From an uncultured archaeon (GTDB lineage Archaea > Asgardarchaeota > Jordiarchaeia > Jordiarchaeales > Jordiarchaeaceae): 15,269 nt of DNA. The position numbers were made by a program, and so were the translations under genes. The notes beneath the pieces are model-generated. The model was not told the DNA's origin and did no database searches. It worked only from the letters and a program-made list of their open reading frames with translations. The first letter of the stretch is position 1, and the number at the start of each line of letters is the position of its first letter. Location of the stretch: NCBI GenBank assembly GCA_964510585.1, contig CAZECW010000006.1:1-15269 (forward strand), in the 5' to 3' direction. Shown here piece by piece: positions 6,282-10,046 of this stretch.

Positions 6282-7226
6282 TTAGATTCTGATTTCTTGC
6301 CTTGTAGCTCTTTTTCTTCTCCTTCTCTCAGGTTTCTTATTCTCCTTGTATGGGCATGCCAGTATCTCGTTGACCTTTTCTTGAACGTCTGGGGGAAGCT
6401 CTTTGTTGGCTATAGCGTAGACTTTCGCAATTACTAGCAGGTCTGATTGTGAGATGTCTGGGTTGCTTGACCAGCCTGAAGAAGCCAGAATCATACATAC
6501 CTTCTCTTTTTTAACGCAGTCCCTCTCACATTCATCACATTGAATCGGCTGAAGGTAGACTTCACCGGTTCTCAGATCAACAGTCCATATGGCTCTCTCA
6601 TCTCTCAAAATAACCTCGTCGTTCTCTGTGCAGAATCCCATTGCTTCCAATACTTCCCTAATTAGGGGGACGTTTAACGGGATTGTTGCGAGGTTCTCCA
6701 GTTTCCTCCGGCTCAGAAGCTGAGCGTAGGGTGGAAGGGTACTATAGGAAAGCCTCAGGTAGAGGGGTTCACTCCTTCTTTCAAATATCCTCTCTGAAAG
6801 AATCTTTAAGCTTTCAATAGGATCCTCGATGTAACTGTCGCCATACTCTATGAAAAGTTCTTGGGGGCTTCTCTCATCCACAATGATGACCAGTACTGGG
6901 ATTTTTCCACAGTGTTTGTAAATCTCTTCGATGTATTTGGGCGCCTCTCCCTCCACACGCCTAGTTAGGAGAACTATAGCTCCATAGGCTCCCTTGAAGT
7001 AGTGGTGAAACATGGACTTAAAAGGCGGAGAATCATAAACGTCCCAGATTTGAATCTTAACCATTCTGCCCTTAACATTAATTACATTCACCTGCAGGCT
7101 AACACCCACAATGGATTTAAAACACTCCAAAAAATAGCTATTAGAATCCATGGATAAAAGGAAACGATCCTTAACCTCCTCACGGGGACCAACAACCAAA
7201 ACCTTAAAAACAAACTCTGAACTCAA
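6282..7226 (-). CDS. Rab/Ras-like small-GTPase-fold protein with degenerate G boxes, fused to a C-terminal Cys-cluster domain and polybasic tail
   Basis: FKVLVVG...SIVGVSL...VKIQIWD...PFKSMFHHYFKGAYGAIVLL follows the Rab consensus. TTG 7226 after a GGGAGTGG SD-like motif is preferred over the track start 7283, which overlaps the upstream gene. Confidence 0.8.
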   Translation of the reverse strand: MSSEFVFKVLVVGPREEVKDRFLLSMDSNSYFLECFKSIVGVSLQVNVINVKGRMVKIQIWDVYDSPPFKSMFHHYFKGAYGAIVLLTRRVEGEAPKYIEEIYKHCGKIPVLVIIVDERSPQELFIEYGDSYIEDPIESLKILSERIFERRSEPLYLRLSYSTLPPYAQLLSRRKLENLATIPLNVPLIREVLEAMGFCTENDEVILRDERAIWTVDLRTGEVYLQPIQCDECERDCVKKEKVCMILASSGWSSNPDISQSDLLVIAKVYAIANKELPPDVQEKVNEILACPYKENKKPERRRRKRATRQEIRI

Positions 7227-7254
7227 GAGATAACCACTCCCCACCGGCCCCTTT

Positions 7255-8093: not shown

Positions 8094-8318
8094 ATGACGA
8101 TTGTAACATTGAGTTCAAGGGGAAGATTGACGCTTCCGGCTGAGGTTAGGTCTAAGATCAAAGCCACAAAATTCTTGGTTCTTCTGGAAGATGACTCCAT
8201 AAGACTAATTCCTCTTCCAGACCCATTAAAACTAAAGGACTCAATAAAAATTCCATGGAGCCTGGAAGAACTTGAAGAGACGGGCGAAGAATTTACACTC
8301 AAAAGAGCTGAAGGGTAA
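8094..8318 (+). CDS. AbrB/MazE/SpoVT-family DNA-binding antitoxin (VapB-type)
   Basis: VTLSSRGRLTLPAEVRSKI ... LLEDDSIRLIP; acidic C-terminus; GAGGGA SD; overlaps the downstream PIN gene. Confidence 0.88.
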   Translation: MTIVTLSSRGRLTLPAEVRSKIKATKFLVLLEDDSIRLIPLPDPLKLKDSIKIPWSLEELEETGEEFTLKRAEG

Positions 8319-8655
8319 ATTTCTACTATTCTAATGTCTTCCTGTCCTATCTGAAAGGCGACGAACTCTCAGCTCAAGCAGAAAAGGTCATAAAATCTGC
8401 AGTCGGAGGCACTCTAGAAGCCTTTGCATCCTCAATGCTCTATGATGATGTGATATCGGGGTTACGGTCAAAAGGTATGACGCCCAATGAAATTCTGCAG
8501 GTTCTCACAGCTATTGCATCAATACCTCACGCCGCTCTTCCGGTTACCCCCACGATAGCGATAGGCACCCTAACACTATACATAAAATATGGTGGTCAAA
8601 GGAAACTCCACTACTTATGCATTCCACGTAGCCACATCCAGAATCTAGGAGTTAC

Positions 8656-8926
8656 AAAACCTTGGCGAGAAAGCCCCCGACTTTAGTCGTGGGGATGAAT
8701 CGCCAAAAAAGCTTATTTGAAAGTAGGGTTATAAGTAGTTGTTGGTAGCTGAAGGGTTTGGCTTGGGCTTAAGAGGCTAAACAAGATGCAGCCCCCATGA
8801 GGGTGCCAACATAGACGCCGTTCCCCTAAGGGAAGGGCGTGTTAACTGGGTGATGGCACACCCATTGCTTCGAAGGTGATGAGCCAGAAGCAAGAATCTC
8901 CCGACTTTAGTTGCGGAGAGTGTCAA
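8656..8926 (+). mobile_element. complete 271-bp non-autonomous IS200/IS605 element (MITE/PATE) with IS608-type ends
   Basis: Target TTAC (8652-8655); LE guide AAAG (8670-8673) before hairpin CCCC-CGAC-TTTA-GTCG-T-GGGG (8674-8694); RE guide GAAT (8894-8897), hairpin 8898-8918, TCAA 8923-8926. No target duplication, no transposase ORF, and precise removal restores the vapC frame. Confidence 0.93.
8705..8726 (+). promoter_or_regulatory. putative archaeal BRE/TATA promoter inside the MITE
   Basis: AAAAAAGCTTATTTGAAA followed by TTATAAG just inside the left end, oriented toward the omegaRNA-like scaffold. Motif match only. Confidence 0.4.
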
Positions 8927-8946
8927 CGATAATAACAAGCGATGAA
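8785..8946 (+). ncRNA. putative TnpB omegaRNA scaffold plus vapC-derived guide, copy 2
   Basis: Same stems as copy 1; ends at the RE TCAA, followed by flank CGATAATAACAAGCGATGAA. The 5' boundary is approximate. Confidence 0.55.
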
Positions 8947-9108
8947 TATATAATTGAACACCAAAAAAATCTAGGCATAAACGCGATCAATTTAGAAAAC
9001 TTATAACAGTTCGGGATAATACTAGCTATTAATGGATTTTCATAGATGTCTCTGTGGACACAATTTTTATTTACTGTTTTTCCCAATTATTCAAAGGGAG
9101 GATCTATT

Positions 9109-9588
9109 ATGAGTGATTCTACAAACTTCACGGAGATCAGAAAGATCGCGGTTAACTGTCTAGTTGGGGAACTAGGTGAGAAGTTTCTTGGACTAGCCCT
9201 TTTTGGGAGTGTGGCGCGAGGGGAGGGAAATGAGAGAAGCGACTTGGACTTCTTTGTGGTTACACGGGGAGTTGAAGGGGATCGTGAACAGAGGAGAAGA
9301 AGAATGTATCGAATCCTCTCTCCAGTAAATAGGAGGTTTAGGAGAGATGTCTCGGTTTTCACCCTGGAGGAGAGTGAAATTACGGATGTTACTCCTCTTC
9401 TTATAAACATCGCTCACGATGCAGTGATATTATTCGACCCGGAAGGATATCTTGAAAAACTTTTTGAGCGGGTAAAAGAGGCTGTGAGAAGGGCTGGGCT
9501 TGTACCTTACAGGACTAGAGATGGAAAAATCGGGTGGAAACCGGTAAGAGAGCTAGAGTGGGGAGAAAAAATTGAGGTGAAATTTTGA
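9109..9588 (+). CDS. minimal nucleotidyltransferase (MNT/MntA-type antitoxin)
   Basis: LFGSVARGEGNERSDLDFFVV (GS..DxD motif); GGGAGGA SD before ATG 9109; overlaps the HEPN start by 4 nt. Confidence 0.9.
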   Translation: MSDSTNFTEIRKIAVNCLVGELGEKFLGLALFGSVARGEGNERSDLDFFVVTRGVEGDREQRRRRMYRILSPVNRRFRRDVSVFTLEESEITDVTPLLINIAHDAVILFDPEGYLEKLFERVKEAVRRAGLVPYRTRDGKIGWKPVRELEWGEKIEVKF

Positions 9589-10046
9589 ACTCAGAAGAAG
9601 AAGCCAAATACAGGCTCACCCTAGCTCAAGGATATTTGGAGAGAGCTGAGGAAGCCTCAAAACGTGGAGACCACTTCGCAGTCATTTCAAACTCCCAGCT
9701 AGCAGTAGAAAACTCGGCAAAAGCGGTTATCTCCTGCTTTAGAATTCCCAGCTGGAGTCACGACCCAAGTAGTGAACTCTTGGAAGTGACTGAGAGTAAC
9801 AGGGGCAAAATTGAGAAAAGAACTGGGATTAACGTTTATCACGCGCTAAGCACTTTAGCTTCTCACTCCAGTAACCTGGCACCTGAACATGGGAGAATGA
9901 GTTATGGAGATCCCAACCTAAGAATACCGCCTTGGGACTTGGCAAACGCGCAACGGGCCAGAGAAGCCCTAAGCTATGCACGGGAGTCAGTAAAAATTGC
10001 AGAAAAATTTGTCGAAAGATGGTTTTCGGTGGATCCTAAAAATTGA
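9585..10046 (+). CDS. HEPN-domain protein (COG2250-type), MNT-HEPN toxin partner
   Basis: AKYRLTLAQGYLERAEEA, SQLAVENSAKAVI, SHD, HGRMSYGD and AREALSYARES helical pattern; coupled to MNT. Confidence 0.88.
   Translation: MNSEEEAKYRLTLAQGYLERAEEASKRGDHFAVISNSQLAVENSAKAVISCFRIPSWSHDPSSELLEVTESNRGKIEKRTGINVYHALSTLASHSSNLAPEHGRMSYGDPNLRIPPWDLANAQRAREALSYARESVKIAEKFVERWFSVDPKN

Follow-up and report, generated by a model that had tools for sequence, protein, structure and literature searches.

A protein-less IS200/IS605 derivative with IS608-type ends and an omegaRNA-type scaffold, multicopy in a Jordiarchaeaceae genome

Introduction

PATEs, as described in Haloquadratum walsbyi, are elements too short for a transposase that originated by internal deletion of IS605-type elements; they have subterminal palindromes in place of terminal inverted repeats, do not duplicate their target, and reach many copies (PMC3119063). 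In Haloquadratum, even a 52-bp PATE made up of ends alone is presumed to be mobile (PMC3119063). PATE-like elements are also known from Geobacillus stearothermophilus, and PATEs often encode omegaRNAs for TnpB acting in trans; the use of a PATE-encoded omegaRNA in trans is an already published idea (Meers et al. 2023, PMC10055086). In the literature that we searched, we found no published test of trans-acting PATE omegaRNAs.

Two further systems are relevant here. In IS608 (ISHp608) of Helicobacter pylori, the prototype of the family, TTAC serves both as the target and for cleavage on the left, TCAA is cleaved on the right, AAAG lies 5′ of the left hairpin foot, and the hairpins are imperfect and bulged; for robust complex formation with its TnpA, a right end of 45 nt with nothing 5′ of the guide is enough (PMC3201880). 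The DNA encoding the TnpB omegaRNAs (reRNAs) of ISDra2 and ISGst elements spans the tnpB 3′ end together with the right end; these RNAs have a multi-helix scaffold that stops where the transposon does, and they take their guide from the flank, with a TAM equal to the TnpA target.

Here, we analyze a 271-bp element, referred to as the MITE, in a 15,269-nt stretch of contig CAZECW010000006.1 of an uncultured archaeon of the Jordiarchaeaceae (GCA_964510585.1); this whole stretch is called the window. The MITE shares with PATEs the coding incapacity, the palindromes, the deletion origin, the high copy number, and the insertion without duplication. It differs in its Asgard-type archaeal host, in forming a very uniform family of ∼80 copies that breaks the assembly at 91 contig ends, and in combining a left-end-proximal promoter-like region with a complete scaffold. 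With IS608 it shares both cleavage sites, the position of AAAG, and the bulged hairpins; the distance from the cleavage point to the left hairpin foot is 18 nt compared with 19 nt in IS608 (PMC3201880), and the TCAA end follows the right hairpin foot after 8 nt compared with the reported 10 nt. Unlike IS608, it has neither tnpA nor tnpB, carries an extra 7-bp outer left stem, and resides in an archaeon. Its 3′ part resembles the ISDra2/ISGst omegaRNAs in location and layout, with flank-derived guide and TAM being predicted, whereas an adjacent tnpB, an Rfam match, and a lineage-supported pseudoknot are absent. Since there is no adjacent tnpB, an RNA made from the MITE would need its own promoter.

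Structure of the element and its ends

By direct reading of the sequence, the protein-less IS200/IS605 derivative (PATE/MITE) occupies positions 8656-8926 of the plus strand (Table 1). All frames contain stops, the length is insufficient for a transposase, terminal inverted repeats are absent, and palindromes lie near both termini; every structural property that characterizes a PATE is present (PMC3119063). The element derives from a resident IS200/IS605 element whose ends are of the IS608 type, and is itself non-autonomous.

On the left, the guide AAAG (8670-8673) is located immediately 5′ of a hairpin with a bulged T (8674-8694; CCCCCGAC/TTTA/GTCG(T)GGGG), and both are surrounded by an outer stem formed by TTGGCGA (8662-8668) and TCGCCAA (8700-8706). 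On the right, the guide GAAT (8894-8897) immediately precedes a hairpin with a bulged C (8898-8918; CTCCCGAC/TTTA/GTTG(C)GGAG). GAAT is the right guide (GR) of IS608. AAAG is its left guide (PMC3201880). An earlier interpretation of the window, which we call the sequence-only reading, had described the 271-bp extent, the TTAC and TCAA cleavage sites, the bulged hairpins, the extra left stem, and both guide tetranucleotides, and direct inspection confirms all of them. The outer left-end stem covaries in other lineages, for example as TCGACAA/TTGTTGA in the element at C81, and is probably a conserved structure acting at the DNA level. For the hairpin at 8754-8782, comparison with other lineages gives no support. 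By the logic of related systems, TTAC at 8652-8655 is also the TAM expected for TnpB.

Table 1. Features of the element and its surroundings in the window.
Feature	Position	Strand	Basis and remarks
Second copy, right half only, at contig start	1-138	+	Covariance model R1, score 154 bits
vapC (PIN) pseudogene split by the element	8315-9006	+	Alignment to intact G004 orthologue
TTAC	8652-8655	+	TnpA target and left cleavage site; same tetranucleotide in IS608 (PMC3201880)
Left-end module	8662-8706	+	Sequence reading, MFE fold
Promoter-like stretch	8705-8736	+	Alignment with parental region upstream of tnpA
MITE-specific upstream hairpin GGGTTTGGC...GCTAAAC	8754-8782	+	MFE folds; no parental counterpart
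tnpB C-terminal coding relic (ANIDAVPLREGRVNWVMAHPLLRR, then stop)	8805-8879	+	Alignment with parental C8, C54, C152, C45
OmegaRNA-type scaffold	8811-8926	+	Covariance model R1, 135 bits for the 8656-8926 copy
Helix S2	8815-8841	+	Folds and helix table; compensatory forms ACGCC/GGCGT vs GTGCC/GGCAC, also ATCCC/GGGAT
Helix S3	8848-8865	+	Folds and helix table; compensatory forms TGGGTG/CACCCA vs GGGCTG/CAGCCC
Helix S4	8866-8893	+	Folds and helix table; compensatory forms TTGCTTC/GAAGCAA vs TTGGAGG/CTTCCAA
TCAA right terminus of the 271-bp element	8923-8926	+	Sequence reading
Predicted 20-nt guide from right flank (vapC C-terminal coding sequence)	8927-8946	+	Inferred from TnpB omegaRNA layout; unique in genome

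The interrupted vapC locus

The congener G004 carries an intact PIN-domain vapC orthologue (…LLDSNVFL…HYFDAYHVATA…IITSDK…) that represents an exact empty site: the 271 bp are absent, with no base missing or added, which confirms the boundaries of the element. The flanks in the window are 87.6% (left) and 84.4% (right) identical to this gene, which has TTAT instead of TTAC at the insertion site. The sequence-only reading had argued from restoration of the vapC frame. The boundaries it derived are exact, and removal of the element does restore the local reading ...ELP-IITSDE, but it yields no working vapC: the gene is broken three more times, by a CAA>TAG change that creates a stop at 8646-8648 and by two deletions of 2 nt each, and is therefore a pseudogene regardless of the insertion. 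The 8656-8926 copy has also accumulated private changes, namely a 4-nt deletion at the tip of S4 (common only to the C49 copy), a C>T exchange in the right-end hairpin, and a TATA box that departs from the consensus. Together with the additional vapC lesions, these changes suggest a comparatively old insertion.

Upstream of vapC, the antitoxin gene (8094-8318) remains open and shows a weak MazE/AbrB-type match. The region directly downstream (9046-10046) contains a nucleotidyltransferase (NTP_transf_2) and HEPN gene pair that looks like a second toxin-antitoxin-type module beside vapBC.

Copy number and insertion sites

We searched the genome (3.78 Mb, 217 contigs, 434 contig ends) by BLASTN and obtained 121 matches of at least 100 nt, comprising 29 full copies of 271-280 bp, 52 left halves, and 40 right halves. 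The multicopy family postulated from the window alone is thus borne out by 29 full copies and 92 halves, and its copy number is about 70-80. As 91 of the 434 contig ends terminate within an element of this family, the MITE explains much of the assembly fragmentation, and these counts point to it as a main cause of assembly breaks in this genome.

TTAC, which the sequence-only reading had expected 5′ of each copy, precedes all but one of the 91 left-end junctions, about 10 of which stem from parental IS copies; five junctions need a 1-base shift of the BLAST boundary, and the exception is preceded by TCAC. On the other side, all 75 right junctions end in GTGTCAA and are followed by 75 distinct flanks. 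The flanks of the 91 left and 75 right junctions share nothing beyond TTAC, so that there is no target duplication, again as proposed earlier. The copies have inserted at diverse sites, which share no gene context. A lone 36-nt right end at C136:4663-4698, 97% identical and with unrelated sequence upstream, may be what is left of a truncated copy.

Resident parental elements

The genome contains four matches to Y1 transposase and five to TnpB. At C169, C7, and C162, left ends 92-95% identical to MITE positions 1-61 (∼61 nt) are located directly upstream of tnpA; the same left end, which we call type A, is also present at several contig ends. Three open tnpA frames of 129-145 aa begin immediately after such MITE-like left ends. 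The type A tnpB 3′ end together with the right end was found at C8, C54, C152, and C45, and the type A TnpB pieces carry D, E, and D motifs. Following tnpB at C8, the last 25 nt of the right end are identical to the MITE, and BLASTN aligns MITE positions 153-271 to C8:254-366 with 77% identity. The autonomous tnpA/tnpB parent with matching ends that the sequence-only reading had invoked is hence resident. At least one type A copy, the one at C7, is frameshifted. Neither contig-end walking nor tblastn recovered a full type A tnpB, of which ∼83 middle residues (∼151-233) are unassembled. In G004, a full-length type A element of 1.7 kb is present (C141:27312-29037), with several frameshifts in tnpA and tnpB.

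A second parental lineage, type B, is represented by a complete element of 1757 bp at C81:5075-6831 with a different left hairpin and a longer scaffold. Its TnpB is encoded by an open 424-aa frame and shows OrfB_IS605 and zinc-ribbon domains as well as RuvC II/III motifs, and its tnpA is frameshifted. We rejected a TnpA-TnpB fusion, suggested by a 571-aa open frame, as a stop-to-stop artefact over a decayed tnpA: the tnpA N-terminus with its Y-H motif lies in a different frame and runs into a stop, and tnpB has its own in-frame ATG (MERTNTF). The C81 tnpB frame spans the entire scaffold, and its TGA stop is supplied by the flank just beyond TCAA. No assembled tnpB in the genome has a scaffold identical to that of the MITE. 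Judged by sequence, the C81 TnpB and the incompletely assembled type A TnpB are possible partners of a MITE RNA.

A conserved scaffold derived from the tnpB 3′ end and the right end

Over its last ∼120 nt, the MITE corresponds to the 3′ end of the parental tnpB together with the right end. When folded separately, MITE, type A, and type B sequences gave the same layout of S2, S3, S4, and right-end hairpin. Toward the 3′ end of the MITE, S4 is followed by GAAT (8894-8897), the right-end hairpin (8898-8918), and TCAA (8923-8926). The MITE scaffold is a mosaic, with type A-like S2 and S3 and type B-like S4 and right end; it is 77% identical to type A and has only S4 and the right end in common with type B. 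Compensatory changes distinguish it from type A in S2 (ACGCC/GGCGT vs GTGCC/GGCAC) and in S4 (TTGCTTC/GAAGCAA vs TTGGAGG/CTTCCAA).

A covariance model, R1, built from ten MITE copies matched 83 places in the own genome and detected the scaffold in 18 of 40 relatives, representing 11 of 25 genera. We then counted base pairs in an alignment of 40 sequences from 19 of 41 genomes (the own genome and the 18 relatives). Allowing that this alignment was fitted to the structure by the covariance model and that related sequences inflate such counts, 92.1% of the cells were paired, compared with 67.3% after shuffling and at most 50% with slid partners, and the covariation score was 0.49, compared with 0.16 and at most 0.11, respectively. 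Both sides had changed in 32 of the 36 scaffold pairs, and none of 500 shuffles reached the observed values. The covariance-model alignment was used for these pair counts instead of a MAFFT alignment, which misaligned S2 and S4. A helix table made by hand, independent of the model alignment, agrees with the covariation. The covariation could stem entirely from tnpB-linked ancestors.

Two further pairings were considered. GTGCCA (8803-8808) can form a candidate pseudoknot with the S3 loop TGGCAC in the MITE family, and type A and type B have no conserved upstream partner. A long-range closing stem in the MFE fold (GACGC/GTGTC) has no comparative support and was rejected as spurious. Searches against Rfam gave no match over the whole window at gathering thresholds and none on 8600-8990 with E up to 1. 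The suggestion that the interior of the element is structured and no random remnant agrees with these results: the interior contains a conserved scaffold whose homologue is the tnpB 3′ end together with the right end, the region that encodes omegaRNAs.

The tnpB relic and the promoter-like region

The scaffold overlaps a remnant of tnpB coding sequence, in which ANIDAVPLREGRVNWVMAHPLLRR, followed by a stop, aligns to the parental TnpB C-terminus ALNIGAVYNGGHVNWAMAHPLEVQI, also followed by a stop. The peptide LKRLNKMQPP with its stop, read earlier as a possible tnpB tail, is no such tail, as the parental C-terminus aligns further downstream, at 8805-8879.

Positions 47-62 of the MITE (AAAAAGCTTATTTG) are a remnant of the parental interval between left end and tnpA start (AAAAAGCTTATAGG). 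A TATA-like motif behind the left end, noted in the sequence-only reading, does exist as a family consensus (TATATAAA, positions 73-80), but in the 8656-8926 copy it is degraded to TTATAAGT (8729-8736). The consensus TATA would put a start site near position 100-105, corresponding to about position 8755 of the window, and the stretch 8705-8736 may, from its sequence, have promoter activity. Because the genome encodes TBP, in two genes, a TATA box would be meaningful in this organism. The genome also encodes a eukaryote-like actin (E = 1e-136), and McrA was not found in it; this gene content is consistent with an Asgard archaeon, and a methanogen was rejected for lack of McrA. Within the family, variation is highest in the promoter-like/TATA region (6.6% compared with 0.8-1.7% elsewhere).

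Predicted guides

The 75 right flanks provide 75 different 20-mers. By established logic, each of these predicted guides would match only the donor joint made by excision of its own element; since a guide matches only its own flank, its expected role would be self-retention or homing at the emptied site and no general targeting repertoire. The dispersed guide repertoire envisaged in the sequence-only reading is therefore accurate as far as the diversity of the flank 20-mers is concerned but overstated as to targeting, with 1 of 75 guides having a second perfect TTAC-adjacent match. This is the guide of the C12 copy, which also matches C154:2124-2143. In the corresponding regions of C12 (8680-8975) and C154 (2105-2143), 98% homology begins exactly at the insertion point, and the C154 match lies inside an open reading frame. 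The pair could reflect an allele or strain variant, a paralogue, or a rearrangement between copies.

Discussion

We consider it probable that the family is explained by four steps. First, TnpA of the full-length relatives would move the MITE in trans by single-strand peel-and-paste, inserting it 3′ of TTAC without duplication. This step is well supported, and the ∼80 TTAC insertions and the three open tnpA frames suggest that the MITE ends would undergo TnpA cleavage and strand transfer. Second, the MITE demonstrably keeps the two ends, the left-end-proximal region derived from upstream of the parental tnpA, and the ∼120-nt four-helix scaffold. Third, an RNA would begin downstream of the TATA-like box, cross the scaffold, and end 16-20 nt into the flank, and a resident TnpB would trim and bind it in trans. 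Fourth, after excision by TnpA, the guide would match the restored TTAC-plus-flank site, TnpB would cut there, and recombinational repair would restore the element; the use of both TnpA and TnpB would help explain the ∼80 copies. The interpretation offered in the sequence-only reading is partly supported: structure, family, and parents of the MITE are documented, and a guide-RNA function is predicted.

The main question raised by this account is if the scaffold is kept for a reason. Three separate protein-less families, of 271-280 bp, ∼330 bp, and ∼205 bp, keep the complete S2-S4 scaffold. The ∼330-bp family is present in low copy number in the own genome (C107:∼6910-7233, C58:∼28228-28557, C21:236-398) and consists of a left end with the outer stem GTGCTCA/TGGGCAA and a full type B scaffold. 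In the numerous ∼205-bp elements of G004, the left end and promoter-like region are joined directly to a type A scaffold from S2 onward. Among 38 scaffold matches outside the window, a crude classification found ∼25 without a long TnpB frame and at least 14 with a left-end-like motif 35-215 nt upstream. An ends-only version was not detected in the own genome, where all 27 assembled protein-less left-right pairs measure 271-280 bp. Because other protein-less families keep the same scaffold, its retention looks non-accidental.

A MAG assigned to Candidatus Methanomethylicota (WYZ-LMO10) contains a related element, likewise protein-less and ∼330 bp long, that shares the S3/S4 junction. It is located at QNVH01000069.1 5266-5595 and QNVH01000047.1 1-134, on contigs otherwise dissimilar to the own genome. 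This suggests either spread across archaeal phyla or a binning error.

The mutation pattern bears on the first alternative, a passive deletion derivative that is moved by TnpA through its ends, has kept the scaffold by descent in a young family, and makes no functional guide RNA. Private (singleton) mutations are evenly spread over ends, promoter-like part, and scaffold (Fisher p = 0.38), so that there is no sign of purifying selection on individual copies; private divergence among copies is low (∼0.3% per site), and the family may simply be young. The variable TATA region and the lack of a tnpB with an identical scaffold likewise fit a passive derivative. At the level of lineages, however, shared variants avoid the scaffold (0.06-0.22 per site) relative to positions 51-94 (0.43 per site). 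Passive descent would also have to account for complete S2-S4 scaffolds in three protein-less families from three scaffold lineages and for the missing ends-only version, although TnpA systems need only ∼45 nt of the right end. We therefore regard a passive origin as possible but rather unlikely.

Alternatively, the helices could act not as RNA but as a structure of the single-stranded top strand, for example by stabilizing the excised circle or helping TnpA. IS200/IS605 elements do transpose as top-strand ssDNA whose hairpins are read by TnpA (PMC3201880), the G-T/G-U wobble pairs that we counted fit the top strand as DNA or RNA, and the conserved outer left-end stem probably functions at the DNA level. 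Yet autonomous relatives have the same helices in the tnpB 3′ end and right end, the established site of omegaRNAs (Meers et al., PMC10055086), and IS608 TnpA requires nothing 5′ of the right-end guide (PMC3201880), which makes a purely DNA-level role of the scaffold very improbable. Finally, domesticated TnpB relatives that work as RNA-guided transcription factors are known (PMC10705468), and the guide of the 8656-8926 copy falls within vapC, but we see hardly any case for host-adopted copies guiding a nuclease-dead or regulatory (TldR-like) TnpB relative to control neighbors such as vapBC, as the resident TnpB pieces retain RuvC motifs, the copies lie at diverse sites without a shared gene context, and vapC in the window is a decayed pseudogene.

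The four-step reading, with mobilization by TnpA and retention guided by TnpB, can be taken further, if tentatively and with somewhat more doubt than confidence. The MITE family would then be a double parasite that has shed both genes: resident TnpA would move it, and resident TnpB, together with a guide RNA driven from its own promoter, would copy it back, so that TnpB homing, beyond transposition alone, would have driven the family to ∼80 copies and it would have spread between archaeal phyla.

The compact, covariation-supported archaeal omegaRNA-type scaffold with its three length variants could guide minimal-scaffold design for the associated TnpBs. The MITE family leaves the general principles unchanged and extends the PATE-omegaRNA picture to Asgard archaea, and its ∼80 near-identical copies with 75 different flank guides are a natural test set for the idea of omegaRNAs acting in trans. 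If the double-parasite interpretation is true, the family would provide the first concrete and testable archaeal example of elements whose omegaRNAs act in trans.
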